Assembly (NCBI GenBank): GCA_029548865.1
Contig: JAKPMO010000015.1
Coordinates: 80,445 to 144,444, forward strand
Source: Caldisericota bacterium
GTDB taxonomy: Bacteria > Caldisericota > Caldisericia > JAAYUI01
Direction of reading: 5' to 3'
DNA: 64,000 bases
Shown: positions 2,191 through 45,547 of the stretch, in pieces
Layout of the letters: the number at the start of each line of letters is the position of its first letter
Numbering within the stretch: position 1 is the stretch's first letter
Position numbers and translations under genes: made by a program
Notes under the pieces: generated by a model
What the model saw: the letters and a program-made list of their open reading frames with translations, nothing else
Database searches by the model: none
Told to the model about the DNA's origin: nothing

Positions 2191-2254
2191 GGGAATGGAG
2201 TTTATGAAAAACATCTTGATTTTCAAGGACAAGGCGGTCAATCATAATAGAGAA

Positions 2255-4108
2255 ATGGAAAACTACGATGTTATTGTGGTTGGTGCCGGACATGCAGGAA
2301 TGGAAGCCTCTCTTGCTTCCTGTCGCATTGGTGCCAAAACACTTCTTCTGACAATAAATACTGACCAGATGGCATACATGCCATGTAACCCAGCAATGGG
2401 TGGACCGGGTAAAACCCAGGTTTTATGCGAGCTGCATGCCCTTGGTGGCGCCTCTGCCATTCTTTCTGAAGAATCGGCAACATCCATAAGGTTGCTCAAT
2501 CGTTCCAAAGGCCCATCGGTACAATCGGTAAGAATACAGGCAGATAGACATTTTTATTCACTTCTGGCTGCCAAATTGATAGGGGAGACAAAAAATCTCA
2601 CCCTTTTACAGGGGATAGTGTCTAGCCTCCTGATCGAAGACGAAAAAATTGTCGGTGTTGTCCTTCTTGACGGACGGAAATTCTATTCAAAAACTGTCGT
2701 TCTGTCCTGCGGTACATACATGTCCGGAAAAGTACACTACGCTGATACAAGCACTCCAGGGGGAAGGATGGGACAGCCCTCAGTCAACGGACTCTCAGAA
2801 CAACTAAAAGAGCTTGGGCTTCCAATCAGGAGATTCAACACCGGCACCACACCCAGAATAGATGCAAAATCAATTGATTATTCAGAGTTGGCAAGACAGG
2901 ACGGGGACACTGAGCCGATAGCTCTTGTCTCTGAGCCAAGGATATTCAAGAACCAGCTTCCAAGCTGGCTTGGGCACACAAACAGCAACACCATGAACGT
3001 AATCAAAAAATACGTCCACCTAGCACCATCAGTCAAAGGCATGATGGTAAGGACAGGCCCCAGGTCTTGCCCTTCACTTGAAGAGAAGGCCAGATGGTAT
3101 GCTGACCGAACAGAGCACCTCTTCTTTGTGGAGCCAGAAAGCAGGTTTACAAACGAGTGCTATCTTCAGGGACTTTACATGAGCATTCCACCCCAGTACC
3201 AGCTCGAGGCACTCAAAACCCTTCCGGGACTTTCAAATGTCAGAATGGTAAAATCCGGATACGCCATTGATTACGATTTTGTAGATCCCACTGAATTGAA
3301 TCCTGACCTTTCCACAAAACATGACGATAACCTTTTCCTAGCAGGGCAAGTTGACGGAACAACCGGTTATGACGAGGCGGCGGCACTGGGGCTTGTCGCC
3401 GGTGCAAATGCCGCACTCAAATCCATGTCACTCCCTCCACTCATATTGGGACGCATGGATGGATACATCGGAGTAATGATTGATGATCTCGCACACAAGG
3501 GTATAACAGAGCCGTACAGGATAACACCCTCCCATGTTGAATTCAGGATGTCTCTGAGGGCCGACAATGCCATCTTTAGGCTTGGTCCAATAGCAAAAAA
3601 AATTGGCCTTCTTGACCCGGAACGGTCCGCCGATCTTTTAAAACTTGAGTCAGACAAAGCGGAATTCGTAAGAGAATCCGGGGGTCTGATTTACTATCCC
3701 GACAAGGACACAAAGGCCTGGTTCCAGGACATTGGCATTGGCGACATAAATGAGCCCGTCAAACTCGCGCAGTTGATTAGAAGACCGCATTTCGATTACA
3801 CAAAACTGATTGCTGTTGCCGCTATGTTCAAATCACTCTCAAGGAGGGCTGTCACTTCCGCAATGACTGATATTGCTATTGAAGCCTATTGTCAGCGAGA
3901 GCAGACAAGGATGAGAGATCTTGAGAGATGGGAGAAATTGTCACTCCCCGAAGACATAGATTATGCCGGAAATATGTTCCTCTCAAAACTGGCACGTCTC
4001 CGTCTTGCGGCAATCAAGCCAAAGACTCTTGGAGAGGCCATGAGGGTGGATGGTGTTACTCCATCAGATATCCAAATTCTTGGTCAGTATGTTTCACGTG
4101 AAACATAA
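2255..4108 (+). CDS. mnmG: tRNA uridine 5-carboxymethylaminomethyl modification enzyme MnmG (GidA)
   Basis: Contains the FAD-binding N-terminus MENYDVIVVGAGHAGMEA typical of GidA, and the length fits. The ORF track starts at 2195, only 4 nt from the tRNA. The internal ATG at 2255 matches the canonical MnmG N-terminus and leaves room for the tRNA promoter. Confidence 0.9.
   Translation: MENYDVIVVGAGHAGMEASLASCRIGAKTLLLTINTDQMAYMPCNPAMGGPGKTQVLCELHALGGASAILSEESATSIRLLNRSKGPSVQSVRIQADRHFYSLLAAKLIGETKNLTLLQGIVSSLLIEDEKIVGVVLLDGRKFYSKTVVLSCGTYMSGKVHYADTSTPGGRMGQPSVNGLSEQLKELGLPIRRFNTGTTPRIDAKSIDYSELARQDGDTEPIALVSEPRIFKNQLPSWLGHTNSNTMNVIKKYVHLAPSVKGMMVRTGPRSCPSLEEKARWYADRTEHLFFVEPESRFTNECYLQGLYMSIPPQYQLEALKTLPGLSNVRMVKSGYAIDYDFVDPTELNPDLSTKHDDNLFLAGQVDGTTGYDEAAALGLVAGANAALKSMSLPPLILGRMDGYIGVMIDDLAHKGITEPYRITPSHVEFRMSLRADNAIFRLGPIAKKIGLLDPERSADLLKLESDKAEFVRESGGLIYYPDKDTKAWFQDIGIGDINEPVKLAQLIRRPHFDYTKLIAVAAMFKSLSRRAVTSAMTDIAIEAYCQREQTRMRDLERWEKLSLPEDIDYAGNMFLSKLARLRLAAIKPKTLGEAMRVDGVTPSDIQILGQYVSRET
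4089..4108. promoter_or_regulatory. Perfect 20-bp palindrome TATGTTTCAC|GTGAAACATA overlapping the mnmG stop codon
   Basis: Read directly: positions 4089-4108 are self-complementary. They contain the GTGAAACA motif that recurs at 25.4-25.8 kb. No T-run follows, so an operator is more likely than a terminator. Confidence 0.4.
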
Positions 4109-4174
4109 TCAAGATTCTTATTAGTATTTATTACTATTCTCTCTTTTTAACAAAGTTTTATTACTCACTTGGCA

Positions 4175-4203
4175 TTGATATAACCAATAGATTTGTTTAT
4201 ACT
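4175..4203 (+). promoter_or_regulatory. Candidate sigma70-type promoter of the hydrogenase operon
   Basis: TTGATA (4175-4180), 17-bp spacer, TATACT (4198-4203), about 30 bp upstream of the hydB start at 4236. Confidence 0.35.
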
Positions 4204-4235
4204 ATCACAGCCAAATTCCATGAAAGGAAAACCCT

Positions 4236-5273
4236 ATGGAACAACGTGTGATGGAGAAGAAGGATGTAAAATCCTTCATCGCTGAGCTGATTAAGCTCTA
4301 TCCCGCCGTTTATGGCCCTATTGCCAAGGGAAAGAGCGTTGTATTCGACAGGCTCAAGGATGCAGGCGAGGCAAAGTTTAACTACACCAGATCAATCCTC
4401 CCCCCAAAAAAGTACCTGATGCCTCAGCAAGAGTGCATAATGAAATTCGATATGCCTCCAAGTCCAAAGGCTGAATCGGTTGTCGAATTTGAAGACCAGG
4501 TGATTGTTGGTGTCCACCCATGCGACATCAGGGCAATAAAACTCCTGGACATGATCATGAAGGGTGGAAATCCAGATGACAACTACAACAAGAGAAGAGA
4601 ACACACCGTAATAATCGGTATTGACTGCGTTCCTGATCAGTATTGCTATTGTAGTTCTGTCATGGACCTGAGATGTACCGATGGTTTTGATATCTTCCTT
4701 ACGGACCTAGGAGACCAGGTGCTTGTTGACGTCCTTACTGAAAAAGGCAAGGAAGTAATCTCAAAGATTGAGACCAAACCAGCCTCCAGCACCCACCTTA
4801 AAAAACAGGATGAGCTTCTTGAAGCAAAAAAGAAACTCTTTACGGCAAAGTTCACTGGCCCTGCTCAGCTCCTTCCGCTTGAGCTCGAAGGCCAGTGGGA
4901 AGCACCAGTTTGGGAAGACATGGGCAAAAAATGCCTTTCCTGCGGGCAGTGCGTCCTTGTCTGTCCGACATGCTATTGCTTCGATGTCACTGATGAACTC
5001 GCCCTTTCAATGAAAAAGGGTGATAGGGTGAGGAAATGGGATGGTTGCCAGCTTGCAGGTTTTGCCTATGTTGGCTCTGGAGAGAACTTCAGGGAAGAGC
5101 CAGGCGCAAGGGTCCGCCACCGCTACCACAGGAAATTCAAATATCATGTTGACTCACACTCAATGACCTTCTGCACCGGTTGTGGAAGGTGCTGGGTCCA
5201 CTGCCCAGTAGAAATCAATCTCGTTGAAATTTCCAACAGGATATTCAAAAGGGAGGCCGAATGCAAAGCCTGA
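4236..5273 (+). CDS. hydB: [NiFe] hydrogenase group 3b-type beta subunit (sulfhydrogenase HydB / AsrA-like 4Fe-4S protein)
   Basis: Cys motifs CLSCGQCVLVCPTCYCF and CTGCGRCWVHCP are typical of HydB/AsrA ferredoxin-like subunits. It is the first gene of a beta-gamma-delta-alpha cluster. Confidence 0.75.
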   Translation: MEQRVMEKKDVKSFIAELIKLYPAVYGPIAKGKSVVFDRLKDAGEAKFNYTRSILPPKKYLMPQQECIMKFDMPPSPKAESVVEFEDQVIVGVHPCDIRAIKLLDMIMKGGNPDDNYNKRREHTVIIGIDCVPDQYCYCSSVMDLRCTDGFDIFLTDLGDQVLVDVLTEKGKEVISKIETKPASSTHLKKQDELLEAKKKLFTAKFTGPAQLLPLELEGQWEAPVWEDMGKKCLSCGQCVLVCPTCYCFDVTDELALSMKKGDRVRKWDGCQLAGFAYVGSGENFREEPGARVRHRYHRKFKYHVDSHSMTFCTGCGRCWVHCPVEINLVEISNRIFKREAECKA

Positions 5274-6088
5274 ACCTTTATGAACCAATGATCGCAACAA
5301 TCAAGTCCGTGAAAGAGCTCACGCCAACCGAGAAAATGTTTGAGGTCGAGCTCCCGGATGGAAAGCGCCTTGGCCATGGCCCGGGACAGTTTGTAGAAAT
5401 GACGGTTTTTGGTGTTGGCGAAGCTCCAATCTCCATTTGTTCTTCTCCAACTGATGGAAACAATTTCCATCTCACCATCCGCAAGGTTGGAGACGTCACC
5501 GGCGTTGTCCACACCATGAAACCTGGTGACAAGCTCGGAATCAGGGGACCGTTTGGCTATGGTTTCCCTGTGGACCAGCTCAAAGGCCACGACATCATAA
5601 TAGTTGCGGGTGGAATCGGGCTTGCCCCGCTCCGTTCTGTCATTAACTACATCTTCCACAATCGCTCCGATTTTGGCCAGTTCACAATAATCCACGGCGC
5701 AAAAACGCCGTCGGACATGCTCTTCAAGGATGAACTTGAAGGCTGGCGTAAAAATCCCAATGTTACCTACCTTGAAACAGTTGACAGGCCCACCCCGGAG
5801 TGGAAGGGCAATGCCGGCGTCATCACAACACTCTTCAAGAAAGTCGGCAAGATCAACCCTGATAACACCTATGCGCTCGTTTGTGGCCCGCCGGTAATGT
5901 ACAAGTACGTCATCCTCGAATGCGGCGTCCTTGGCATCCCGGACAGCCACATTCTTGCATCTCTTGAAAGAAGAATGAAGTGCGGCCTTGGCAAATGTGG
6001 TCATTGCCAGATCAATGGCCTCTATTGCTGCCAGCACGGACCTGTCTTCACATATACTCAAATCAAGCACCTTGAGGAGGCCCTATGA
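5261..6088 (+). CDS. hydG: [NiFe] hydrogenase gamma subunit (HydG / AsrB-like FAD-NAD(P) oxidoreductase with 2Fe-2S)
   Basis: Ferredoxin-NADP reductase-like fold signature GPFGYGF, with the C-terminal CGLGKCGHCQ cluster motif. 13-nt overlap with hydB. Confidence 0.75.
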   Translation: MQSLNLYEPMIATIKSVKELTPTEKMFEVELPDGKRLGHGPGQFVEMTVFGVGEAPISICSSPTDGNNFHLTIRKVGDVTGVVHTMKPGDKLGIRGPFGYGFPVDQLKGHDIIIVAGGIGLAPLRSVINYIFHNRSDFGQFTIIHGAKTPSDMLFKDELEGWRKNPNVTYLETVDRPTPEWKGNAGVITTLFKKVGKINPDNTYALVCGPPVMYKYVILECGVLGIPDSHILASLERRMKCGLGKCGHCQINGLYCCQHGPVFTYTQIKHLEEAL

Positions 6089-6831
6089 GCAAACCCAGGA
6101 TAGCTTTTTTTGACTTTTCATGCTGCGAAGGCTGCCAGCTCCAGGTCCTGAATTGCGAAGATGAGCTCCTTGATCTTCTCGCCCTCGTCGACATTGTCCA
6201 GTTCCGCGAGGCAATGACAGAGGCAGACTGGAACTTTGACATCGCATTCGTCGAGGGTTCCATAACCAGGGAACAGGATGAGCCAAGGCTCAAAAAAATC
6301 AGGGAAGCGGCAAAGCTCGTCATCGCCATCGGAGCCTGTTCAGGAATGGCCGGAATCAACGCCATCAGGAACGCAATGCCGATTGACAAAGCAAAAGAGA
6401 TAGTCTATGGCAACAAGAAAGATGCTTTTGAATCTACCTTTGCCCGCCCAATTGACACAGTGATCAAGGTTGATGGCTACATCCCAGGCTGTCCGATTGA
6501 CCGCAAAGACTTCCTGCGCACAGTCCAGGCCCTCCTGGTTGGCAAAAAGCCACCGGACCACGATTATCCTGTCTGCCAGGAATGCAGGCTCAGGGAAAAC
6601 GAGTGCCTTCTCACAGTCGGCATTCCATGCATGGGCCCAATCACAAGGGGCGGCTGTGATGCAATCGAACCAACCTTTGGTTCACCCTGCATCGGGTGCA
6701 GAGGTCTTGTTTCTGAAGCCAATATCGAGTCATGCAAGCAGATGCTTGAAAAGCACGGCCTTACAATAGAAGACATCAGCAAGTACATGACCATTTTCAA
6801 TTCCTTCCAAAAGGAGGAAAAACATGCCTGA
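6085..6831 (+). CDS. hydD: [NiFe] hydrogenase small (delta) subunit
   Basis: N-terminal FFDFSCCEGCQLQ and GIPCMGP...GCDA motifs match the NuoB-like hydrogenase small subunit. 4-nt overlap with hydG. Confidence 0.8.
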   Translation: MSKPRIAFFDFSCCEGCQLQVLNCEDELLDLLALVDIVQFREAMTEADWNFDIAFVEGSITREQDEPRLKKIREAAKLVIAIGACSGMAGINAIRNAMPIDKAKEIVYGNKKDAFESTFARPIDTVIKVDGYIPGCPIDRKDFLRTVQALLVGKKPPDHDYPVCQECRLRENECLLTVGIPCMGPITRGGCDAIEPTFGSPCIGCRGLVSEANIESCKQMLEKHGLTIEDISKYMTIFNSFQKEEKHA

Positions 6832-8119
6832 TCATGACATCCATGTGCATTATGTGACCAGGGTCGAAGGCCATGGCGACATCGTATGCAAGACAAACAA
6901 CGGTGTTGTTGAGAAAGCCGAATTCAATGTTGTCGAAGCCCCAAGGTTTTTTGAGGCCGCCTGCGTTGGAAGGGCCCATTATGAAATAAAGGACATCGTT
7001 ACAAGGATCTGTGGCATCTGTGCTTGCGGACACGCCCTCGCTTCCCTAAGGGCAAGCGAAGCTGCAATGTCCATCGAACCATCAGAGCAAACCATTGATC
7101 TTCGCAAGATTGTCCTCCACGGCGAAACCATCCAGTCCCATTTTCTCCATGCCTATTTTCTCGCCGCCCCAGACTTCCTTGGTGTTGGCTCAGTAATCCC
7201 GCTCGCCTCGTCTCACAAAGACGTCGTTGTCCGCGCTCTCAAACTCAAAAAACTCGGCAATGACATCAGTGAAACAATCGTTGGAAGACATGTCCATCCG
7301 ATAACCCTCAAGATCAACGGCTTTTCAAAGCTTCCAGACCCAGCCGCATTAAAGGCAATCCAGAAGCGGGTCATTGATGCATTGCCGGACATTGAGGCAA
7401 CTGTAGACCTTTTCTCGACCATCAAGGTCCCAGAACTCTACAGGGAAACCGAGTACATCTCCCTTGGGCCAACTGGTGGAGATAAAGAATACCCGTTCTA
7501 TGATGGTGACATCATCTCCTCCCTTGGCCAGTCATACAGACCATCCAATTATCAGCAGGTTTGCAATGAAGAAGTTGATCCAAAACACACTGCAAAGCTT
7601 TGCAGGCACAAAGCCCCATCATATCAGGTTGGTGCCCTCGCAAGGTTCAACAACAACTATAACCTTTTGAGGCCAGAGGCCAAAAAAGCTGCCGAAAAGC
7701 TAAACCTTAAGGCCCCGAACCACAACCCGTACAATATCACAATGGCCCAGGTTGTCGAAGCTGTGCATGTTGCATACGACCTCATTGATCTTATCGACAA
7801 AGTGCTCACAAAAGGAATCAAGGAAGAAAACAACAAGTACCAGCCAAAGGCAGGAACAGGCGCTGGTGCTGTTGAAGTCCCAAGGGGAATACTGTTCCAC
7901 AGCTACAAGTACGATTCCAATGGGATCTGCCAGTGGGCCGATTGCGTCATACCAACAACCCAGAACGTTCGCAATATCAATGAAGATATGAAGGCCCTCG
8001 TTCCAACCATCATCGGAAAATCACAAGAGGAAGTTTCCCTTCTTCTGCAGATGCTCCTCAGGGCATACGACCCATGCATCTCCTGCTCCACTCACCTTAT
8101 CAATGTGAGGTTTGAGTAA
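6824..8119 (+). CDS. hydA: [NiFe] hydrogenase large (alpha) subunit
   Basis: N-terminal RICGICACGH and C-terminal DPCISCSTH NiFe-ligating Cys pairs are present. Confidence 0.85.
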   Translation: MPDHDIHVHYVTRVEGHGDIVCKTNNGVVEKAEFNVVEAPRFFEAACVGRAHYEIKDIVTRICGICACGHALASLRASEAAMSIEPSEQTIDLRKIVLHGETIQSHFLHAYFLAAPDFLGVGSVIPLASSHKDVVVRALKLKKLGNDISETIVGRHVHPITLKINGFSKLPDPAALKAIQKRVIDALPDIEATVDLFSTIKVPELYRETEYISLGPTGGDKEYPFYDGDIISSLGQSYRPSNYQQVCNEEVDPKHTAKLCRHKAPSYQVGALARFNNNYNLLRPEAKKAAEKLNLKAPNHNPYNITMAQVVEAVHVAYDLIDLIDKVLTKGIKEENNKYQPKAGTGAGAVEVPRGILFHSYKYDSNGICQWADCVIPTTQNVRNINEDMKALVPTIIGKSQEEVSLLLQMLLRAYDPCISCSTHLINVRFE

Positions 8120-8587
8120 GTGAACACTCTCGTGGTCGGGCTCGGAAACACCCTTCTGGGTGATGAGGGGGTTGGTGTCCATATTGTCAATATTCTCAAG
8201 GACCAGCCCCTTCCTCAAAGCGTCGTCCTAAAAGACGGCGGGGTTTCAGGTTTTGATATTCTCCCTGACATTCTGGAGTCCGACCGCGTTGTTATTATTG
8301 ATGCCGCCAAGATGGGGCTTGTTCCAGGATCTGTGAGGTCTTTTACTCTCGACAACGTCCAGATGCCTGACGGCCCCGAGTTCTCCCTCCATGACCTTGG
8401 TCTCCCACAGGTGCTAAAGCTGGGTTCCACCATCTCCAGTCTCCCCCCGATGCTGCTTATCGGGATCGAGCCCAAAAAGATCGCTCCCGGCGCTTCACTC
8501 TCCGAAGAGGTCACAGGTCAGATGGGGAACATCCTTGAGTACGTTTATTCCGCCATTCTCGACTTCACCAAGGAGGTAGTCAATTGA
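8120..8587 (+). CDS. Hydrogenase maturation endopeptidase (HycI/HybD family)
   Basis: 155 aa. The N-terminus LVVGLGNTLLGDEGVGVHIV is typical of hydrogenase C-terminal processing proteases. It lies immediately after the large subunit. Confidence 0.75.
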   Translation: MNTLVVGLGNTLLGDEGVGVHIVNILKDQPLPQSVVLKDGGVSGFDILPDILESDRVVIIDAAKMGLVPGSVRSFTLDNVQMPDGPEFSLHDLGLPQVLKLGSTISSLPPMLLIGIEPKKIAPGASLSEEVTGQMGNILEYVYSAILDFTKEVVN

Positions 8588-8982
8588 AGAAGATACTTAT
8601 TATTGATGATGACACCGATATGGTTGAGGCGATGAGGATCGCCTTAGAGGCCGTTGGTTACAAAGTTTCTTCCGCCCCCAATGGCACACAGGGGCTCAAG
8701 ACCCTTCTTGAGTTCGCCCCTGACCTTATCATCCTCGATGTCATGATGGACACCGACACTGAAGGCTTCAATGTCGCTTGGGCCATCAGATCAGACGAGG
8801 ATTCCTCCGTCTACAAGAAATTCAAAAACATTCCAATCCTGATGGTCACATCTGTCTCATCTGAGAAGAAGATGAAGTTTGACCCAAAGAAGGACCAGGA
8901 GTTCCTTCCGGTCAACGATTTCATCGAAAAACCAATCAGGCCACAGCAACTGCTTCAAAAGGTGTCACAGTACTTAGGCTAA
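8584..8982 (+). CDS. Single-domain response regulator (CheY-like receiver)
   Basis: KILIIDDD...DLIILDVMM receiver motifs. TTG start overlapping the upstream stop. Confidence 0.75.
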   Translation: MKKILIIDDDTDMVEAMRIALEAVGYKVSSAPNGTQGLKTLLEFAPDLIILDVMMDTDTEGFNVAWAIRSDEDSSVYKKFKNIPILMVTSVSSEKKMKFDPKKDQEFLPVNDFIEKPIRPQQLLQKVSQYLG

Positions 8983-8983
8983 A

Positions 8984-10771
8984 GTGCCAAAAGAACAATT
9001 CCAAAGGTTTGACCTAAGGGAATGTTCTCAGTTTCTCTCAGGGAGCGATGCCCTGATAAATCTTCGCTGGATTGCGGCAGGGGCCCTTTTCATAGCTTCT
9101 GCCGCAATATGGGTTTTCCTACCCAGCTTGTGGCCATTCCCGCTCTTAATAATTTCAGCTCTTATTGTATTTTTTAATATTTTTCTCATTTATCTGAGGT
9201 CTTCTTGCCCGGATGGGAACAGATTTTTCACACTTCAAGTTGCCTGCGACTGGATTTTCCTTTTTCTTGTGTGTTTCTGGACCGGCTCTATTTCAAGCCC
9301 TGCTGTGTTTTTATTCCCGATCTATTCCATTCTTGTAGGTTTTTTTCTGCCAAAAAAACTTGCATACCTAATTGCAGGTTTTGGCTCCCTTCTTATCGGG
9401 CTTCTCTCTCTATGGGTCACTTCATCTCCACTGGCCTATGTTATTGGTCAAGCATTTTTCTACATAATAGTTCTGTTTTTCTGCACAACCATTGGCATCT
9501 GGGCATCAGGACAGCTCAGGGAACAGCTTGATCTTTCAGATTTTTTGCGCAAGTCGCTTGAAAAAGAAAACAGCAGGCTTGGCCAGGTGTACAAATCAGC
9601 GCTCGCAATGAACTCTGGCCTTGATCTTCCGAATGTGCTTGCGATCATAACAAAATGCTTCAATGAAACAGGTCTTTCAAATGCCACAGTGATAAGGTTG
9701 TTGTCGGAAGATGGGCTGACCCTTAACATCGCCAGTGCTGAAGGAATCTCGTCCGAATACGCCCAAAGGGGCTCTGTGGCCCTGAAAGATGACGAGATTG
9801 ATTCCGAGGCAATCAAATGCAAATGCCCTGTTTTTGTGAGTGATGTGGCAAAGGACGAGAGATTTCTTTACAAATCAGAAGCAGAGCGTGAAAATCTCAG
9901 ATCCCTGCTGTGCATCCCTTTGTTTAGCAATGAAAAAGCCATTGGCATTATAAGGTGCTACACTTCAGATTACCACGAATTTTCTGATGAAGATGTCGAA
10001 TTTTTAAGTCTTCTTGCCGCCCAGGCAAGCCTTGCCATTTCAAATGCAGTCTCTTATGACAAGATGGTCAAACTCGACAATTCCAGGAACGCTTTTATAA
10101 GAATGGCCACCCACGAGTTGAGGGCGCCCATGGCGGCTGTCCAATCCGTTTTGCAGATAATTCTGGACGGATATGTTGGCGATGTGCCAGAAAACCAGAA
10201 GCAACTTCTTTCCAGGTCAAATAACAGGATAACCCAACTTCTGAGGCTGGTTTCAGAGCTCCTTGAGCTTGAGAAGACAACAAAGACCCAGGACAGCTTC
10301 GAGCCAATAAATCTGAAGGAGCTCCTCTCAAGGATCATCTCAGAAATCGCCCCAAAAGCTGACAGTAAAAAAGTCAGGCTTATAATGTTTACTTGTGGAG
10401 ACAATGTAATCATAAAAGGTATCGAAGAAGCAATTTTCAGGATTTTTGAAAACCTTGTGGACAATGCTGTGAAATATACCCACAGCAGTGGTCAGGTGAC
10501 AATCAGACTTCTTGAGGATGATGGCACAGCAACAATTCAGATTGTCGATAATGGCATTGGGATTCCAGCTGAGTCAATACCAAAACTCTTCTCCGAATTT
10601 TACAGGGCCCCGAATGCAAAGCAAGAACAGGTGCAAGGCACCGGTCTTGGTTTATCAATAGTCAAAAAATTTGTCATCATGCATGGTGGGAGCATATCAG
10701 TATCTTCACAGGTAGATGTCGGGACAACTTTTACTGTAACACTCCCTAAAGATCCCCAGCTGACAATTTAA
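8984..10771 (+). CDS. Membrane sensor histidine kinase with GAF domain
   Basis: About 5 N-terminal TM helices. A GAF-like block (LLCIPLFSNEKAIGIIRCY). HisKA H-box HELRAPMAAV. HATPase_c G-boxes (DNGIGIP, GTGLGLSIV). GTG start. Confidence 0.8.
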   Translation: MPKEQFQRFDLRECSQFLSGSDALINLRWIAAGALFIASAAIWVFLPSLWPFPLLIISALIVFFNIFLIYLRSSCPDGNRFFTLQVACDWIFLFLVCFWTGSISSPAVFLFPIYSILVGFFLPKKLAYLIAGFGSLLIGLLSLWVTSSPLAYVIGQAFFYIIVLFFCTTIGIWASGQLREQLDLSDFLRKSLEKENSRLGQVYKSALAMNSGLDLPNVLAIITKCFNETGLSNATVIRLLSEDGLTLNIASAEGISSEYAQRGSVALKDDEIDSEAIKCKCPVFVSDVAKDERFLYKSEAERENLRSLLCIPLFSNEKAIGIIRCYTSDYHEFSDEDVEFLSLLAAQASLAISNAVSYDKMVKLDNSRNAFIRMATHELRAPMAAVQSVLQIILDGYVGDVPENQKQLLSRSNNRITQLLRLVSELLELEKTTKTQDSFEPINLKELLSRIISEIAPKADSKKVRLIMFTCGDNVIIKGIEEAIFRIFENLVDNAVKYTHSSGQVTIRLLEDDGTATIQIVDNGIGIPAESIPKLFSEFYRAPNAKQEQVQGTGLGLSIVKKFVIMHGGSISVSSQVDVGTTFTVTLPKDPQLTI

Positions 10772-10860
10772 TAATAAAATTCCGATTCAATCAGGTGCGA
10801 ACCGCTTGACATTGTACAAATGTTATTTTAGGATAAACTTACTTGTTAACAGGAGGTAAT

Positions 10861-12225: not shown

Positions 12226-12243
12226 TTCCGAAACAAACAAAAA

Positions 12244-12270
12244 GGCCCGGCCTGGACCGGGCCTTTTTTT
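12244..12270. terminator. Bidirectional rho-independent terminator between convergent genes
   Basis: GGCCCGG-cctgga-CCGGGCC stem followed by T7, flanked by an A-run on the other side. Confidence 0.6.
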
Positions 12271-16429: not shown

Positions 16430-16443
16430 TCTCTGGATTCTAA

Positions 16444-17166: not shown

Positions 17167-17233
17167 GTTTCGATGATAAACCCTGTTTAAAAAATGGACA
17201 AGAGATGTATAATGGTTTTTAAGGAGGCCTCAA

Positions 17234-17527
17234 ATGGACAAGTTTTCAAAAAAACTCACCGATGACGAGATAAGGCTGAAATTTATCAGGATCCCAAAGG
17301 GCAAAGAAAAACTCTTTAAAAAAGACGACTTTAAAACCAGTTTCAATGAGGGTGAATTTATTGCCTATATTTACCCGGTAGAATCCAAAAGCATGGGCCC
17401 AAACATGAAAACCTACGAATACCAGCTCAAATTCAGGGACCCGCAACCGCCGATTTTTATATTCAACGAAACGCTGGAGTTCACAACCTTTGATTCAGGG
17501 GAAACGTGGCTCATAAGCTTTGCGTGA
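17234..17527 (+). CDS. Hypothetical small protein
   Basis: 97-aa ORF in an otherwise empty gap. No recognisable motif. Confidence 0.35.
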   Translation: MDKFSKKLTDDEIRLKFIRIPKGKEKLFKKDDFKTSFNEGEFIAYIYPVESKSMGPNMKTYEYQLKFRDPQPPIFIFNETLEFTTFDSGETWLISFA

Positions 17528-17587
17528 CAATTGTTGACGATTTGTTTCCAAATTGTTTATATCTACTGTGAGTATGTGGAGAACTAT

Positions 17588-18658: not shown

Positions 18659-18740
18659 TTATACGCAATATTATTTTACTTAACGTCTTATGTAAACCCT
18701 AATTGTATTTAGCCTGCCCAACCAATATGATGAACTGGAT

Positions 18741-20246
18741 ATGAGAAAAATCGAACTTGTAGACCTTACACTAAGAGATGGACAGCAGAGCCTTGTTGCA
18801 ACAAGGATGACAACCGAACAGGCGCTTTCAGCCTTTCCAGATCTGCTTGATGCAGGTTTCAAGGAGCTGGAGCTGTGGGGAGGGGCCACAATCGATGCTC
18901 CACTGAGGTTTCTGAATGAAAATCCATGGGGAAGACTTGACGAATTCTACAGACTGGCCAAAGGAAGAGCAAATATAAGAGCCCTGATAAGGGGCCAAAA
19001 CCTTTTTGCATATTCTCCTTATCCGGACAACCTTGTCATAGCTTTCTGCAAGGCTGCAATAAGATCTGGCGTTTCGACCATGAGAGCATTTGATGCCCTC
19101 AATGACAAACGAAATGTCATGATTTCACTCATCGCTTCAAAAGCGTTTGGTGGAAAAGCTGAATGCTGCATCAGCTATACAACCTCCCCGATACACACCA
19201 CAGAAAAGTTCGTCCAGCTTGCCGCCGACTACGCATCAGAAGGCGCTGACATCATAGCAATCAAAGACATGGCTGGTCTCCTCAATCCCAAGGACGCCGC
19301 AATAATAATACCAGCAATCAAAAAAGAGATTTCCGTTCCATTGACGGTCCACAGCCATTCAACGGTTGGCTATGGCGAAACAACCGCACTGGTTGGTTTG
19401 ATGTTTGGTGCCGACAGGATAGACGTCGCGGTTGGTCCGTTTGCTGGAGGTTCGAGCCATCCACCAGTGGAGCTTGTTGCAGTAATGGCAGAGAGACTCG
19501 GCATTGACCACAGGCTCAACCACGAAGCGATCCAGAGGGCCCAGAAGAAGCTCTTTGAGGTGAGAAAAGCCCTGGCAAAGTTTGATTCCAGTGCCAACAA
19601 TCTCCCGAAGCCAATTCCCAATCCGCTCCCACAGACAGACATAGACAAAATTGACAAAGCAATCGAACTAGTCAGAAAAGGCGATTTCGACGAGGCAAGG
19701 AGAACTATTGTTGACCTGATGACCTCCTATGGCTACCCAAAACCGGACGAGGCCCAGCTTGACGCACAGGTGCCAGGCGGAATGCTCTCGAACCTTCGCA
19801 ACCAGCTCAAGGAAGTTAACCAACTCCAGCTCCTGCCTCAAATTCTCGAGGAAGTTGCCAGAGTAAGGGCGGATTCAGGATACCCTCCGCTTGTCACTCC
19901 AACATCCCAAATTGTCGGCTCCCAGGCAGCTTTCAATGTACAAACAGGTCAGCGTTACAAGATCGTCTCACGGGAATTCAAGGACATGGTTAGGGGAAGG
20001 TATGGCAGACCAGGCCCGATATCTGAAGAATTCCTGAAAATGGTGACCGGAAGCACTGAAAGATATACTCAGCGTTCAGGCCATTATGTGGATGACGTCC
20101 CGCTCACTTCCGAAAATGGCTTCAATCCACCACCATTCATCAATAATCATAGGGATCTTCTGCTTTATTACATGCTCCCAGGGCCTACAAAAGACTTTTT
20201 CGAGAAACAAGACTCAAAAGCAAAATCACCGGAACAGCCTCACTGA
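18741..20246 (+). CDS. Carboxyltransferase 5S-type subunit (oxaloacetate decarboxylase alpha / pyruvate carboxylase subunit B-like), lacking a biotinyl domain
   Basis: LTLRDGQQSL TIM-barrel carboxyltransferase N-terminus, and FDALND. No AMKM biotin attachment motif at the C-terminus. Confidence 0.75.
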   Translation: MRKIELVDLTLRDGQQSLVATRMTTEQALSAFPDLLDAGFKELELWGGATIDAPLRFLNENPWGRLDEFYRLAKGRANIRALIRGQNLFAYSPYPDNLVIAFCKAAIRSGVSTMRAFDALNDKRNVMISLIASKAFGGKAECCISYTTSPIHTTEKFVQLAADYASEGADIIAIKDMAGLLNPKDAAIIIPAIKKEISVPLTVHSHSTVGYGETTALVGLMFGADRIDVAVGPFAGGSSHPPVELVAVMAERLGIDHRLNHEAIQRAQKKLFEVRKALAKFDSSANNLPKPIPNPLPQTDIDKIDKAIELVRKGDFDEARRTIVDLMTSYGYPKPDEAQLDAQVPGGMLSNLRNQLKEVNQLQLLPQILEEVARVRADSGYPPLVTPTSQIVGSQAAFNVQTGQRYKIVSREFKDMVRGRYGRPGPISEEFLKMVTGSTERYTQRSGHYVDDVPLTSENGFNPPPFINNHRDLLLYYMLPGPTKDFFEKQDSKAKSPEQPH

Positions 20247-20254
20247 CCCCGTTT

Positions 20255-21387
20255 CTACTTCAACAAAGTGACCGCTTCCTGGGATTGGATTACAAGCCCT
20301 TTGCAGAGGGCCATTCCAAGTATGGTCCTTTTGCCTTCAATTTTCCTTGCTGGCAGGCCGGTTTTCATATCAAAAACATAGAGCATCGGATCACCGTTTA
20401 ATGCAACAAAGAGGGCGTCTCTTGATGCAACAATGCCCCTCATCTGAAGGGTGTTCGGAACTATGATTCTCGACTCTTCAATTCCCGTCTTCAAACCAAT
20501 TTTTGCGATTTTCGATTTTGACGGCACAAGGACGTAATCGCCATATATACAGGGATTGCAACCTAATATACTCGGCTGGCCATCAAGACTGGTTATGGCA
20601 TAGTGCCATATCTCTTCTCTGCTCCTGGTGTCATAGGCATACATCCTGGCCCTTGAGTTAACAAGTATCGTATAGGCTGATGCCTGTGGTGGATAGTCAG
20701 GGGGACCGTCAAACTCCAGGTGCCACAAAATGCTGCCATCCATAAATGAAAGTGCGAATATATGGGTATAGTCAAACCCTTTTGGGCCACCTGTTACAAA
20801 CAGCTCGCGCTCGCCAAGTGTGACCCATCTGAAAACATAATCCTTTGCAATATCGGTTTTCCACTTAAAAACGCCTGTTTCCTTGTGGATGCAAAAAGCT
20901 GTACCAATATTTGTTACGCCATAGAGCGAATCCTTGTGTTCAAACATCGAGACCACTTCTTCGTCATCAAACTCCATGGTCCAGTTTTCCAGCATTGTTC
21001 TTTTGTAGAAACATTTGAGACTGCTGCCGCTTGTTACAAAAAGGTAATTTTGATCAAGTGCAAGCTCATAGGTAAAAGCTTCATCAAGAAGCACCGGAGC
21101 AATTGCCTGCTTTCCGCTGTGTTCATCCAGAACAACAACTCCCGGACCATTTTCGGTCGTTGTGACAATGTATATACCTTCGCCATCAGATACTGGTGAC
21201 GTGAGCGCGAGGGTTTCATAACCGATGTCCCATACCAGAGCAACGTTATTACTGGTGCCCTCGTTGGCCGAATACCACCTTTGGGGTATACCACCCTTTG
21301 TGCCCCAGACAGTAATTCCCCCGCAACCAGAAACCAGCACAAGTAAAACGGTGATTTGTGCAAAAATCAGAAACTTTTTGATCATTG
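20255..21387 (-). CDS. PQQ-like beta-propeller lipoprotein
   Basis: The likely true start is MIKKFLIFAQITVLLVLVSGCGG (ATG at 21387). The ORF track extends it to 21484. Confidence 0.55.
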
Positions 21388-21616
21388 GCCCTAATAATAG
21401 AAAATTATACTCTCTGGTAAAGAACAATTTGGTTTTGTGCAGTGTGTGGAAAACCCTGTGGACAAATTCATGCCATTTTGCCAAGTGTCTTTGGTTTTAT
21501 GAGACAATTGTCGGTTTCTGTCAATTTAACAATCAAAGGAAAAATAATCTGCAAGAAGAATCATTGCAAAAAAAGTTATCAACATGTGGAAATCTATGTG
21601 GATATCAAAAATGTGA

Positions 21617-23383
21617 TCAGGGTAATCTTGTGTTCTCTTCAGGCATCCAGATGTTTAGCAATGCCGGTTTTGGGTTGACAGCAATCGCACAATTGAGTCC
21701 AAAAACTTCTCCCAGGACGACTACCTTGTCACTCCCTGAAACTGATCTTTGTATTATTGAGCGCGGTTCAAAATATTTCTCCCAAAAACTGCCGTTTCCT
21801 ATCGATGAAAACTTTGTGACTCTCATTGAAGCTATATCCCACAACAGCGAGAGTTTTCCAGAATTTGACACGGCCAGAATGTTGTCTGTGATTGGCACAA
21901 GAACACCAAAACTCTGGCAGGCTGCGCTTTCAACCTGCCCGGCCACGCAAGAGATTTTGCTCATAAGTCCGCCGGAAAGCACCATCAAGTACGTTGAATC
22001 CTGGGTGAATGAGAACTCTGGATTTTTTGCCTGCACTGTCTTGATTATTGAACCTTGCTTGAGATCGAAGAGTTTTACTTGTCCTGGCTGATAGCAGGCC
22101 ATGTACTTTTCGTCCCAAGACACAATGATGTCGTTCTTGTCTATGTTCTGACCAATATTTATTTTCTTGCTTGGGTTGTCCCTGTCTACAAAAGAGCCTC
22201 CAACAACTATGTATCTTGGGTTCATATCAAGAGTGCCGGGCCGCCTTGTTTTTTCGTTTATGAGGGACGGATAGCTTATGCTTGAAAGGTCCTGGCCTAT
22301 GATGTCCATTGAAGAGTAACCTGGAAAAGTCAAAATCACGTCGTTTGTTAGTATTGATCCGGATTCATCCATTGGCAACGAGGAAACAGTTGCGCCATAT
22401 GTTGGGTGATTGGAGAACACAAGCCCATATGGTGGCATCTTTTCATTGCCGGTCAAATATATGCCGATTGTGTTTGCGCTTGCAACCAGCGGTGTGGAAC
22501 CAAGAAAAAGTGGTGGTATGGCTTTGTTTATTGTCTCCCCATTTGGGATGCAGATATAGATTTTTGCACCAGGTGCAGAGTCGTTGTCCACCTGTGAATC
22601 AAACGATATGTCCTTGGATTCAAAAGAATAATTTATTTGAGAATCGTCGGTTATGACGACCTCTCTCTTTATCATTCTGTGGCCTTCCATGGCCAGTCTG
22701 ATCTTTTTTGTTCCTGTTTCAATCTGGCCTTCCCATGGGGTCTTTCCATAATGCTCTTCGTCGATGTACAGTTCTGCGCCCTGTGGCTCGGAGCCAATCT
22801 TGAGGTTTACCCTCTTCTTCTGGAGGTCAAAATATACGCTCGGATCAGTGTCGAAATCAACTTCTTGCTCTTTTGTTGCAAACCCTGGCAAAACAGCTTT
22901 TATCACATGCTTCCCCTTAAACTCTTCCTTTAGTTGCAAGGGAGTTAGGCCAAGAAACTCATTATCAATATATATTCTCGCCTGATCCGGATATGAGAGA
23001 ATAGTTGTTCCTCCAGTGGATTTGGCAAGCTTATAGTTTATGGTCTGGTTGTTTTCATTAATTGTGGCTACAGACTTCAGTGGTGCATAACCGGCCAGCG
23101 AGAGCTCGATTTCTACATCGCCTTTTTTTAGTCTGGTTATCAGTGGTGTTGTGCCCTTTGAAATGCCATCCAGTATAACCTCAGCACCTTTTGGTTCTGA
23201 GGTTATCTTGACCTTCAGAATATCACTCTTTGGGATGTTGAGTGCCACCAGGAGAAAAATGCCAACGATGATTACAGATGCGAGTGCTATCGTAAAATAC
23301 CTGAACTTGGAGTTTTTTGAAGAGAACCTTTGGATGCCCTTTATTTTCTCGCCATCCGATATCAGTGTTGGTCTATCATTCAT
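21617..23383 (-). CDS. PEGA-domain membrane protein
   Basis: N-terminal TM helix, then three PEGA-type repeats (VKITSEPKGAEVILDG, ARIYIDNEFLG, LKIGSEPQGAELYIDEEHYG), then a beta-rich C-terminal region. Confidence 0.6.
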   Translation of the reverse strand: MNDRPTLISDGEKIKGIQRFSSKNSKFRYFTIALASVIIVGIFLLVALNIPKSDILKVKITSEPKGAEVILDGISKGTTPLITRLKKGDVEIELSLAGYAPLKSVATINENNQTINYKLAKSTGGTTILSYPDQARIYIDNEFLGLTPLQLKEEFKGKHVIKAVLPGFATKEQEVDFDTDPSVYFDLQKKRVNLKIGSEPQGAELYIDEEHYGKTPWEGQIETGTKKIRLAMEGHRMIKREVVITDDSQINYSFESKDISFDSQVDNDSAPGAKIYICIPNGETINKAIPPLFLGSTPLVASANTIGIYLTGNEKMPPYGLVFSNHPTYGATVSSLPMDESGSILTNDVILTFPGYSSMDIIGQDLSSISYPSLINEKTRRPGTLDMNPRYIVVGGSFVDRDNPSKKINIGQNIDKNDIIVSWDEKYMACYQPGQVKLFDLKQGSIIKTVQAKNPEFSFTQDSTYLMVLSGGLMSKISCVAGQVESAACQSFGVLVPITDNILAVSNSGKLSLLWDIASMRVTKFSSIGNGSFWEKYFEPRSIIQRSVSGSDKVVVLGEVFGLNCAIAVNPKPALLNIWMPEENTRLP

Positions 23384-24213
23384 TTTGCAATGACCTCACA
23401 TATTCTTTCCAGGTCTTCCCTACCATAATACTCAATCTCTATCTTGTCTTTTAAGACCCTTACCTTGGTCCCCAAGGTTTCCCTGAGTGCAGTTTCTGCA
23501 AGGACTGCTTCATGGGTTTTCTCTTCCTCCCGCGGCTGGGGTTTCTTTGCCGGGGTTTCTTCCTGTATTTTCTTTACAGCCTTTTCTGTTTCCCTTACAG
23601 ACATCTGGCCAGTAACGATCCTTTGCATCATGCCCAGCATGAGCCCATCATTTTTGAGGGAGAGGAGCGTTCTTCCATGGCCCTCTGATATTGTTCCCTT
23701 GAGTATTGCGTCCTGGACGATATCGGGAAGATCGAGGAGCCTCAAAAGATTTGCAACGTAAGGTCTGCTCTTCTTGATGCCGTCTGCGATCGACTCCTGT
23801 GTGTAGCCAAATTCCTCGCGGAGCCTCTTCATGGCCCTGGCTATATCGATCGGATTGAGATCCTCCCTCTGGATGTTTTCCACAAGGGCAAACTCTGCCG
23901 CATCGATGTCCGATATCTCCCTTATGACAACGGGGATTTTCTCAAAACCCGCCAGTCTTGCAGCCCTAAGCCTTCTTTCACCTGCAATGAGCTCAAAGCC
24001 GTTCCTGATCCTTCTGACGACAATAGGCTGGATTACGCCAGATTTCTTTATCGACTGCGCCAGCTCCTGCAGTGCCGCTTCGTCAAGCGCGGTTCTTGGC
24101 TGGTATGGTGAATAAGTTATTGCGTCAGTTGAGAGCTCTACAACACCGCTTGAAACCTCTTCGCTCGGGAGCAAGGCCCCGAGACCTTTTCCCAGTCCAA
24201 ACTTACCTGCCAC
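23380..24213 (-). CDS. parB: Chromosome partitioning protein ParB/Spo0J
   Basis: GLGKGLGALL and GERRLRAARLAG ParB motifs. The ORF track extends to 24321, overlapping parA by 119 nt. A GTG at 24213..24211 preceded by AGGAGG (24226-24221) gives the canonical MxxKxGLGKGL start. Confidence 0.75.
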   Translation of the reverse strand: MAGKFGLGKGLGALLPSEEVSSGVVELSTDAITYSPYQPRTALDEAALQELAQSIKKSGVIQPIVVRRIRNGFELIAGERRLRAARLAGFEKIPVVIREISDIDAAEFALVENIQREDLNPIDIARAMKRLREEFGYTQESIADGIKKSRPYVANLLRLLDLPDIVQDAILKGTISEGHGRTLLSLKNDGLMLGMMQRIVTGQMSVRETEKAVKKIQEETPAKKPQPREEEKTHEAVLAETALRETLGTKVRVLKDKIEIEYYGREDLERICEVIAK

Positions 24214-24967
24214 CTTTGAGCACCTCCTCGGCCAGTTGTTCATATGATGATGCCCCTTTTGAGGTAGGGTCATAGACTGAGATTGGCTGGCCATAGGAAG
24301 GGGCTTCGGATACTCTGACATTCCTTGGGATTACTGACTGGAAAAGCTGGTCACCGAAATATTTTTTTACTTCAGAGGCGACCTGCCTGGAGAGGGTTGT
24401 CCTCTCGTCGTACATGGTGAGGAGAACCCCGAATATTGAAAGCGTGGGGTTAAGTGTCCTGTGGATAAGGTTTACGGTTGAAAGGAGCTGGGACAACCCT
24501 TCCAGCGCGTAATATTCGGTCTGTATTGGGATAAGCACCTGGTCCGATGCAACAAGGGCATTTATTGTCAAAAGTCCAAGTGATGGTGGGCAATCAATGA
24601 GAGTGAACTCAAATTTTTCCTTTGCGGTCTTCAAGCCCTCTTTTAGTCTGTGTTCTCTCTGCTCCAGGTCGACAAGCTCCACTTCTGCGCCAGCCAGATC
24701 GACCTTTGAAGGGACTATATAAAGATTTTGGTACTGGGTCTGGATTGTTATTTCATCGAGTGTGCCATGGCCTATCAAAAGATCATAAGTGGACTTTTTA
24801 ACATCCATCCGGTCAACACCAACACCGGTTGTTGCGTTGCCTTGGGGATCAATATCGCAAATAAGGCACTTTACGCCCCTTTTTGCAAGAGCATAGCCGA
24901 GGTTTACGGCGGTAGTTGTTTTTCCAACTCCGCCCTTCTGGTTTGAAAGCGCAAGGATCTTGCCCAT
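24203..24967 (-). CDS. parA: Chromosome partitioning ATPase ParA/Soj
   Basis: The deviant Walker A motif (KGGVGKTT) is present. Confidence 0.9.
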   Translation of the reverse strand: MGKILALSNQKGGVGKTTTAVNLGYALAKRGVKCLICDIDPQGNATTGVGVDRMDVKKSTYDLLIGHGTLDEITIQTQYQNLYIVPSKVDLAGAEVELVDLEQREHRLKEGLKTAKEKFEFTLIDCPPSLGLLTINALVASDQVLIPIQTEYYALEGLSQLLSTVNLIHRTLNPTLSIFGVLLTMYDERTTLSRQVASEVKKYFGDQLFQSVIPRNVRVSEAPSYGQPISVYDPTSKGASSYEQLAEEVLKGGR

Positions 24968-24981
24968 TTTTCACCTTTTTT

Positions 24982-25327
24982 TGGTGGAGGTGACGGGATT
25001 CGAACCCGTGTCCAACTTGCCTTTCGAAAGACAGGGATTACAAGCTTTGCAAGCCGTTTACCCTCTTAGCCTATGGCTTGCCCTTTGGCAGAGGGTTGCC
25101 CAGATTGTACCATGGGCCATCCGCCCGGGCGGCAGATGACTTGGGGGCACTTGTGCGTCGGCTTCCGGTTACCAGCGCCACTCTCACCGGTTGCCGTGTC
25201 GCCTAATTAGGCGGCGAGTGCGTAATTATTTGTGGCAGTTATGCCGTGGTCCATTTTTTACGAGGCCCTGGACCAACCTCGGCTTGCCTGTTCCTTCAAT
25301 TGTCAAGTGTCGAGACCTTTCACCCCC
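24982..25327 (-). ncRNA. ssrA: tmRNA (ssrA), tag peptide ATNNYALAA
   Basis: The reverse complement begins GGGGGUGAAAGGUCUCGACA... and ends ...CACGGGUUCGAAUCCCGUCACCUCCACCA, a tRNA-Ala-like acceptor/T arm. It contains the resume ORF GCC ACA AAU AAU UAC GCA CUC GCC GCC UAA. Confidence 0.8.
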
Positions 25328-25374
25328 ATGATGTTATTATTGGCTTTTGCACAAAAAAGTTCATTCATGCTATT

Positions 25375-25786
25375 GTGAAACGCCGTGAAACATTTTATAC
25401 CAGTAATGTTCATAATGTCAAGGAGGCTTGGTTTTTTCAAATTCTTATCAACATATCCACAAAATGTGTGAAACATTGTGAAACATTTTTCATCCGGTCT
25501 CCAAATGGATGTCCGCATAAAGTTTTTCTCCACGTGCCCCAAAACAACCTAGTAAACTGTTCACAATTTTATCCAGAATCATGCAAATACTTTTAGGTTG
25601 CCTGGCAGCTTGTTTTGAGTAATGGTCAAAAATACTCTCCTAAAAAGGCGTGAAACACTGTGAAACATTTTGACTGACTTTGATGATATTGGCGTGAAAT
25701 TCTTTCTAATACATATTTTTTTAAAAATTATGGATTTAGTCCGTGAAACACCGTGAAACATTAACTGCCGGCAAACCGGTGTTTCA
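25375..25786. promoter_or_regulatory. Array of four tandem-doublet GTGAAACA repeats plus a terminal inverted copy, in an AT-rich 490-bp intergenic region
   Basis: Doublets of the form GTGAAACAyyGTGAAACATT at 25375-25396, 25466-25490, 25648-25672 and 25741-25766. A half copy at 25691-25700. An inverted TGTTTCA at 25780-25786 follows a CCGG-caaa-CCGG palindrome. Confidence 0.4.
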
Positions 25787-25820
25787 TTGACAAAACCAAT
25801 CTAATCCCTAAACCTTTTCG

Positions 25821-29655: not shown

Positions 29656-29817
29656 TTTTCCACAGTGTTAACACCTTTATTATGAATTATGTTCTTGGAT
29701 GCAAAAACTTCATAATCATAATAAGTATGTTGATAAGGTGCATAAGTTGCCTTATGCAACAAACCTACTGCAAATTGTCCTAAGAAAAATTTTCTCATAA
29801 CTTGTCTAAAGTGTGGA

Positions 29818-45512: not shown

Positions 45513-45547
45513 TTGATGCATAATATGTGTTTCATATACTCATTACG

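Follow-up and report, generated by a model that had tools for sequence, protein, structure and literature searches.

The chromosomal partition protein ParB (Spo0J) is best known from its palindromic site parS, at which a ParB dimer binds and, with cytidine triphosphate (CTP), is loaded onto the DNA as a sliding clamp. Closing of this CTP-dependent clamp is thought to need the dyad symmetry of parS. A ParB-type helix-turn-helix (HTH) domain can read heptamer boxes in non-dyad layouts, as in plasmid P1, whose parS has non-palindromic ATTTCAC A-boxes. Here we describe a 64,000-nucleotide stretch of the genome of a Caldisericota bacterium of the Caldisericales (referred to as the window), which carries a perfect 20-bp palindrome at the end of the mnmG gene and, some 21 kb away, an array of four direct-repeat doublets upstream of the transfer-messenger RNA (tmRNA) gene ssrA and the partition genes parA and parB. 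On balance we favour the view, based on sequence comparison, that the palindrome and the doublets are both binding sites of ParB.

Several described systems resemble parts of this arrangement. In Pseudomonas aeruginosa, ParB binds GTTCCAC/GTTTCAC half-parS sequences in vivo, independently of its CTP motif and of dimerisation (PMC10419367), and these half-sites occur as hundreds of scattered single copies with little local effect (PMC10419367, PMC5961200). In the same species, a cluster of boxes for the initiator DnaA upstream of gidAB-parAB serves to control transcription (PMC13438810). ParB2 of Vibrio cholerae binds a parS2 half-site inside the origin region of chromosome II, where it competes with the initiator RctB (PMC3688505). 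Finally, cisII and cisMP of Deinococcus radiodurans are direct-repeat elements upstream of parAB that combine origin and centromere (PMC7671480).

The palindrome at the 3' end of mnmG

The palindrome, TATGTTTCACGTGAAACATA, contains a 16-bp dyad that matches the chromosomal parS consensus TGTTNCACGTGAAACA without a single mismatch. An earlier reading of this DNA, made from the sequence only, had correctly described a perfect palindrome about 130 bp ahead of a hydrogenase operon (128 bp separate it from an open reading frame (ORF) at 4236 that encodes a Fer4_22 hydrogenase-type subunit), and had taken that operon for its target. The palindrome is coding DNA: it forms the final codons of mnmG, in which GTTTCACGTGAAACA encodes the protein tail VSRET. 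When MnmG proteins were compared, the tail (Y/F/H)VSRET was present in all relatives of 60-99% identity and was not found in more distant homologues (P0121-P0143). At the DNA level, ATGTTTCACGTGAAACAT was kept base for base at the 3' end of mnmG in three genomes (loci L157, L158 and L159 in our numbering) with MnmG proteins 61-73% identical. What lies downstream differs between these three: the hydrogenase operon follows directly in L158, is separated from mnmG by an extra gene in L159, and is missing in L157. Because the palindrome is conserved with mnmG whatever genes follow, it belongs to mnmG and the partition system and not to the hydrogenase genes, and the operon falls away as its target. 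We are highly confident that it is the canonical parS centromere site of this genome, unrelated to the hydrogenase operon. The MnmG tail, in turn, appears to owe its sequence to the parS DNA within the gene and not to the function of the protein. The site lies 19 kb from parB, 21 kb from the DnaA-box cluster and parAB, and 26 kb from dnaA.

The doublet array and its conservation

The four doublets were found at 25375, 25468, 25650 and 25743, with start-to-start spacings of 93, 182 and 93 bp, in good agreement with the spacing of about 90-180 bp reported from the sequence only; their placement between the tmRNA 5' end and an aromatic ammonia-lyase gene (25821-27392, plus strand) was likewise confirmed. 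On the plus strand they have the form GTGAAAC(A/G)nnGTGAAACA, and each is a direct repeat of the parS half-site (A)TGTTTCAC-R, arranged head to tail with a period of exactly 10 bp. The idea that palindrome and doublets form one motif family is thus borne out, as the doublets repeat the half-site of parS. The fourth doublet lies 60-80 bp ahead of the start of the lyase gene. In the window, the 8-mer GTGAAACA occurs 12 times against 3.65 expected, a count that none of 100 shuffles reached. Ten of the 16 GTTTCAC heptamers fall in the palindrome and the array, and the other six do not exceed the 11.5 expected by chance. The motif thus clusters at these two places and is not scattered through coding DNA, as it would be under the refuting condition set by the sequence-only reading. 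No further doublet copies were present elsewhere in the 64-kb window, and no terminal inverted repeats were seen. An Rfam scan of positions 24800-26000 returned the tmRNA gene as its sole match and no RNA element in the array. The inverted copy with which the array was said to end exists in part: TGTTTCAT at about 25780 matches seven of the eight bases, and it is kept only in the near-identical L001 and L160. An extra GTGAAAttc at 25693 is not shared even by L001.

We then compared the parB neighbourhoods of the window and of nine other non-redundant Caldisericia genomes, with ParB proteins 61-96% identical. A ParB scan of a genome collection had yielded one close relative (L001), and the intermediate relatives came from protein searches and contig look-ups; the closest genome record was the metagenome-assembled genome UR.bin110, with a ParB 96% identical. 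A search with the PEGA-domain protein encoded next to parB gave almost nothing new among more distant Caldisericota. Upstream of ssrA, the ten genomes hold 34 doublets, two or four per genome. Of these, 28 (56 units) were tabulated base by base; the remaining six come from L160 and L161 and conform to the pattern of the 28. The tabulated doublets follow the consensus A-T-GTT(T)CAC-R-n-y-GTT(T/C)CAC-R. Within the unit GTTNCAC, the G, T, T, C and A are invariant, and position 7 is C in 27 of 28 first units and in all 28 second units. Accordingly, 55 of the 56 units read GTT[T/C/A]CAC and one reads GTTTCAT (L081), the sole other changes inside the heptamer being T to C or A at the "N" position of parS. 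A purine follows every unit, and the first unit is preceded by T in 27 of 28 cases, itself preceded by A in 24 of 28, as in the extended palindrome ATGTTTCAC. The period is exactly 10 bp in 28 of 28, and all point towards ssrA, with none reversed.

The position of the doublets is as regular as their sequence. In 12 of 12 loci, 47-53 nt separate the end of the proximal doublet from the tmRNA 5' end, and in most relatives this doublet lies just upstream of the predicted -35 element. The distal doublet is found 77-93 bp further up, with canonical DnaA boxes within 2-13 bp of it, often as an inverted pair TTATCCACA-(a)-TGTGGATAA. A module thus consists of a doublet, one or more DnaA boxes, a spacer of about 50 bp and a doublet, and each genome has one or two such modules. 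The second module, present in seven of the ten genomes, directly adjoins the ammonia-lyase gene. Between the two modules of L154 and L155 stand one or two unrelated genes, so the modules are separable; the inserted genes have no Pfam match (L155 1018-4266, encoding 522 and 519 aa; L154 3952-4326, encoding 124 aa). The window's own two modules have little in common beyond the motifs themselves, and an origin of one from the other by duplication was rejected on that ground.

Two comparisons separate the doublets from their surroundings. In L001, the 96% relative, all doublet units are exact, and the only changes within doublets affect the two bases between the units in two of the four. Between doublets 2 and 3, by contrast, identity drops to roughly 55%. 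This is the phylogenetic footprint that the sequence-only reading had proposed to look for, with units kept as the flanking DNA drifts. In addition, L083 and L156 have doublets beside ssrA without an adjacent lyase gene (the neighbour in L083 is hisS), and in L155 and L161 other genes (two in L161) stand between the lyase gene and the ssrA-side doublets, which stay by ssrA. The doublets thus travel with ssrA-parA-parB and not with the ammonia-lyase gene, which can no longer be regarded as their target.

This architecture was not encountered outside Caldisericia. Among 79 ParB loci of other phyla (874 kb), 27 contained a total of 56 palindromic parS sites within 6 kb of parB, and none contained a 10-bp direct doublet. 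The Caldisericia loci show the reverse: each has two to four doublets, and palindromic parS is absent within 6 kb of parB. A scan of metagenomes for two doublets 55-85 bp apart returned 69 loci, mostly 10-bp satellites or unrelated tandem repeats. Five of them were Caldisericia arrays (L110, L114, L121, L123 and L140), which supplied redundant copies for the comparison, and no other lineage with this architecture was among the 69. The Ga0126342/Ga0126343 contigs of one metagenome series (L084, L090, L093, L100 and many others) are rich in long (GTTTCACnnn)n satellites of 10-bp period, which are unrelated to the bacterial arrays. One further locus, L086, has about 20 copies of TGTTTCACGG, direct and inverted, at 4900-5250, upstream of a putative small-terminase ORF; this cluster could be a pac or centromere-like site. 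As a precedent for the array it was rejected, since its terminase gene (large terminase, 5844-7157) marks it as a phage contig and no ParB homologue was present within the 13 kb examined.

ParB and rival candidate readers of the doublets

Three observations point to ParB as the reader of the doublets. The doublet unit matches half of the genome's own parS at eight of eight positions, and the agreement extends to the A-T flank and to the variation that parS allows at its N position. Two bases that never vary in the units, G at position 2 and T at position 3, belong to parS and not to the DnaA-box consensus. Moreover, the array stands at the head of ParB's own operon. The protein itself is a canonical ParB: its best match among solved structures is Bacillus subtilis Spo0J (6SDK, E 3.5e-52), the CTP motif GERRxRA and the recognition helix KSRPxxANxLRLL are conserved, and it is the only ParB-like ORF in the window. 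Whether ParB binds the tandem half-parS doublets is, in our judgement, an evenly balanced question. The doublets match no described family and, judged by their sequence, behave most like half-parS ParB sites.

Each of the systems introduced above shares some of these features. Like many chromosomal parS sites, the mnmG palindrome is a perfect match, origin-proximal, accompanied by a canonical ParB and placed inside a conserved gene. The doublets use the same half-site in direct instead of inverted repeats, and these genomes further differ in having no palindromic parS within 6 kb of parB, such as 27 of the 79 loci of other phyla possess. The heptamers are the same as those of the P. aeruginosa half-parS sites; there they are scattered, whereas in Caldisericia they form phased pairs at one conserved locus, with the heptamer at or below chance elsewhere in the window. 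With the parS2 half-site of V. cholerae the array has in common that half-parS lies in replication-control DNA, where ParB may compete with an initiator; that case involves a single half-site, a secondary chromosome and RctB, and this one multiple tandem pairs, a primary chromosome and DnaA boxes. The D. radiodurans elements are likewise direct repeats upstream of parAB that overlap DnaA boxes and have origin- and centromere-like roles, but their units are 18-bp iterons without relation to canonical parS, and the secondary replicons or plasmids that carry them have ParB types of their own, while the Caldisericia unit is a canonical half-parS. Finally, in P. aeruginosa oriCII (PMC13438810) a DnaA-box cluster also lies directly upstream of the promoter of a parAB-containing operon and close to dnaA; no half-parS doublets are described there, and the first gene is gidA and not ssrA.

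If ParB does occupy the doublets, two of its DNA-binding domains would sit head to tail on each doublet, one turn apart and on the same face of the helix. Because the half-sites lack dyad symmetry, the established ParB-CTP-parS mechanism leads us to expect that the doublets would hold ParB in place instead of loading sliding clamps. Such non-dyad occupancy is plausible, since half-site binding in P. aeruginosa needs neither dimerisation nor an intact CTP motif. A fixed ParB platform at the ssrA-parA-parB-PEGA promoter could then bring about autoregulation, as in plasmid and Vibrio Par systems. Being interleaved with DnaA boxes 4 kb from dnaA, it could also couple ParB, and via it ParA/Soj, to DnaA, and so affect initiation. 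As a tentative extension, which we regard as possible but doubtful, Caldisericia may have evolved a second, non-dyad class of ParB site, consisting of phased tandem half-parS pairs within a DnaA-box cluster, that keeps static ParB at the origin. TGTTTCACR is at the same time a near-DnaA box, so that on this extension ParB and DnaA might compete or cooperate on the same DNA. Our literature search turned up neither phased half-parS pairs in tandem inside a cluster of DnaA boxes nor a description of an origin for the phylum Caldisericota.

A number of points weigh against ParB. The case for its binding to the doublets is drawn entirely from sequence, and a dyad is what ParB classically recognises. 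A symmetric ParB dimer does not predict that all 34 doublets should strictly share one polarity, a feature more typical of DnaA arrays, or of response regulators with direct-repeat sites. Real DnaA boxes lie around the doublets, and TGTTTCACA is one position off the relaxed DnaA box TTWTNCACA. In L083, L156 and L140 the doublet shares a 10-bp register with a TTATCCACA beside it; as a general rule such a fixed register between doublet and strong DnaA box was rejected, because it holds in these three loci and fails elsewhere (gaps of 2-13 bp). The cumulative GC skew of the window (2-kb bins), for which 64 kb is too short a stretch, has its minimum near 54 kb and not near the array at 25 kb. In V. 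cholerae, moreover, the half-site alone was necessary but not sufficient for binding, flanking sequence being needed as well (PMC3688505).

The proximity to the DnaA box and the shared register also feed the strongest rival, in which the doublets are low-affinity, non-canonical DnaA boxes (TGTTTCACR) whose same-orientation pairs extend DnaA oligomers from strong boxes, much like the low-affinity arrays of E. coli or the tandem box pair of the basal unwinding system, their likeness to parS being incidental. The setting suits such a role, with 20 of the window's 33 near-consensus DnaA boxes within 20-32 kb, dnaA 4 kb off and canonical boxes next to the distal doublet in every relative. The uniform polarity would fit a directional DnaA filament, and tandem DnaA-box pairs are the commonest origin arrangement (PMC8287927). 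The units themselves are 1-2 mismatches away from relaxed TTWTNCACA, but 3-4 from the strict box TTATCCACA, of which these genomes make abundant use, often in perfect form. Position 3 is fixed as T though DnaA accepts A or T, and the non-consensus G at position 2 is present in 56 of 56 units, unlike what is seen in drifting weak sites. Where true DnaA boxes stand in tandem in these genomes, their spacing is 12-13 bp, versus 10 bp for the doublets; other DnaA-box clusters, downstream of the PEGA gene and around dnaA, are without TGTTTCAC; and the window lineage has kept its doublets perfect but let its canonical boxes decay. We therefore consider DnaA an unlikely reader. An operator for a factor that binds direct repeats, for example a response regulator of the OmpR/PhoB type controlling the ssrA promoter and/or initiation, would account for the 10-bp period and fixed polarity, and also for the position of the proximal doublet at a fixed distance from the tmRNA 5' end and, in most relatives, directly upstream of the predicted -35 element. 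The response regulators MtrA, CtrA and HP1021 bind within origins, and the OmpR/PhoB-type class is known at some of them; the HP1021 box TGTT[TA]C[TA] resembles the doublet unit. On this explanation, it would be coincidence that the unit agrees in full with half of this genome's parS, in its A-T flank and in its N-position variants, and no regulator gene is consistently linked to the array, the conserved DNA-binding neighbours being ParB and DnaA only. We thus regard it as improbable.

The two remaining explanations go back to the sequence-only reading. Its preferred one, a dimeric regulator shared by redox and catabolic genes, stands in so far as a dimeric reader is likely, and fails as to the hydrogenase and lyase genes as its targets. 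In the form of one Rex/CRP/FNR-type regulator acting on the hydrogenase operon through the palindrome and on the ammonia-lyase gene through the doublets, it is very improbable. The palindrome does precede the first hydrogenase-type ORF by 128 bp, and doublet 4 the lyase start by 60-80 bp, but the former is mnmG coding DNA conserved where no hydrogenase follows (L157) and the latter has counterparts that persist by ssrA where the lyase is missing or displaced. Sites of Rex, CRP and FNR are spaced inverted repeats, with halves of the TGTGA/TTGAT type on either side of a 4-6 bp spacer. Neither element is of this kind: the doublets are direct repeats, and the halves of the palindrome stand in the opposite order without a spacer. 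The other explanation, that the array is a decayed, functionless mobile or repeat element such as a remnant of a miniature inverted-repeat transposable element or a satellite, can appeal to the 10-bp GTTTCACnnn satellites in other metagenomic DNA, which make up the majority of the 69 scan matches. It is barely credible for an array that keeps its locus in ten genomes (ParB 61-96% identical), with invariant motifs and diverged DNA between them, without terminal inverted repeats or further copies in the window, and with two modules that share only the motifs.

The par operon, the DnaA boxes and the origin question

Coordinates of the two elements and of the surrounding features are given in Table 1.

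Table 1. Positions in the window of the palindrome, the doublets, the DnaA-box-like sequences and the associated genes.
Feature	Position	Strand	Description
mnmG (gidA)	2195..4108	+	Pfam GIDA, E 6.9e-123; last codons V-S-R-E-T-stop coincide with parS
Canonical parS (predicted)	4089..4108		Core TGTTTCACGTGAAACA at 4090-4105, extended to 20-bp palindrome
Second conserved DnaA-box cluster	21445..21605		Downstream of PEGA gene; tandem boxes with 3-4 nt spacers, no half-parS
PEGA-domain gene	21617..23383	-	Conserved last member of the ssrA-parA-parB-PEGA row
parB (spo0J)	23380..24213	-	Pfam ParB_N, HTH_ParB; start probably GTG at 24213, giving 277 aa as in relatives
parA (soj)	24203..24967	-	Pfam AAA_31, CbiA, ParA; ATG 14 nt past the tmRNA 3' end
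ssrA (tmRNA)	24982..25327	-	ARAGORN; Rfam RF00023, 117 bits; first gene downstream of the array
Doublet 1, ssrA-proximal	25375..25392	-	Plus-strand GTGAAACGccGTGAAACA, one mismatch; minus-strand TGTTTCACggCGTTTCAC; 47 nt before the tmRNA 5' end
DnaA-box-like 9-mers in array	25445..25577		TTATCAACA at 25445, ATATCCACA at 25453, TTATCCAGA at 25569
Doublet 2	25468..25485	-	TGTTTCACaaTGTTTCAC; adjoins DnaA-box-like ATATCCACA at 25453-25461; both kept in L001
Doublet 3	25650..25667	-	TGTTTCACagTGTTTCAC; conserved in L001
Doublet 4, ammonia-lyase side	25743..25760	-	TGTTTCACggTGTTTCAC; conserved in L001
dnaA	29818..31113	-	Pfam Bac_DnaA, Bac_DnaA_C, DnaA_N; 4 kb from array

The gene order dnaA-hisS-(lyase)-array-ssrA-parAB recurs in the relatives. 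No terminator-like site was found on the coding (minus) strand at the junction of ssrA and parA, and for this reason parA, parB and the PEGA gene are probably co-transcribed with ssrA. A gap of about 14-40 nt from ssrA to parA, again without a terminator-like site, is present in the window (24967-24982) and in L081, L082, L153-L156, L160 and L161. The conserved ssrA-parA-parB-PEGA row implies a putative tmRNA-par polycistronic precursor in Caldisericia. In L083, the ssrA 3' end is the exact insertion point of a RhuM-family gene, which there separates ssrA from parA. Abutting doublet 1 is a strong promoter match, TTGACA-18-TAAAAT; it is confined to the window lineage and is therefore not used as a general ssrA promoter. 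On the other side of the array, a small HRDC-domain gene (29077-29655, minus strand) lies directly downstream of dnaA in four genomes (the relatives being L081 534-767, L153 280-738 and L160 764-1300), and the dnaA-HRDC spacer (29656-29812) holds DnaA-box-like 9-mers.

At the places equivalent to the DnaA-box-like 9-mers of the window, the relatives have perfect TTATCCACA/TGTGGATAA boxes. Each relative contains 2-6 boxes (at most one mismatch) per 350-750 bp, compared with about 0.1-0.2 expected by our own estimate with equal base frequencies. The second cluster, downstream of the PEGA gene, recurs in L082 (8628-8783), L083 (8694-8866), L154 (8596-8759) and L155 (8578-8741), where two tandem boxes separated by 3-4 nt are accompanied by an inverted box and, about 130-150 bp off, by a further one. 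The two clusters that flank the par operon might represent a bipartite origin. The array region has AT-rich stretches (for example 25713-25735), and no clear DnaA-trios were seen there by eye. We consider the region, on the basis of these motifs, a probable origin or origin-like control region, with the DnaA-box cluster and the nearby dnaA speaking for an origin, and the skew, the second cluster and the P. aeruginosa precedent for transcriptional control speaking against it. Its status as active oriC is unproven, because the skew minimum does not lie at the array: there is no GC-skew switch in the region of the DnaA boxes and dnaA (20-32 kb), and the cumulative skew falls to about 54 kb and then rises. 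Two giant plus-strand ORFs at 31551-40574 (3007 aa) and 45747-55082 (3111 aa) may dominate the local skew. An alternative origin in the AT-rich intergenic DNA at 45.1-45.7 kb was rejected, since it has a small HTH gene and no DnaA boxes; this ORF (45220-45513) ends in a Fis-type HTH-like sequence (…AAKQLGITRKTLYAMIKKY…) and contains a weak parS-like match with three mismatches (45335).

The two elements differ in what they contribute. The palindrome is a textbook parS, and its value lies in annotation and in the example it offers of a protein tail, VSRET, set by a DNA site. What binding to half-sites means is a question raised by the Pseudomonas work, and the array would be a natural and deeply conserved case of it in which the half-sites are paired, phased and polar. 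It provides a defined substrate for the behaviour of ParB on non-dyad DNA and for the meeting of segregation and initiation proteins on origin DNA, and, in a phylum that has been little studied, it marks what is probably the origin or the control region of par. If Caldisericia do have the second, non-dyad class of ParB site suggested above, chromosome segregation, replication initiation and expression of the par operon would be hard-wired to one another in these bacteria.

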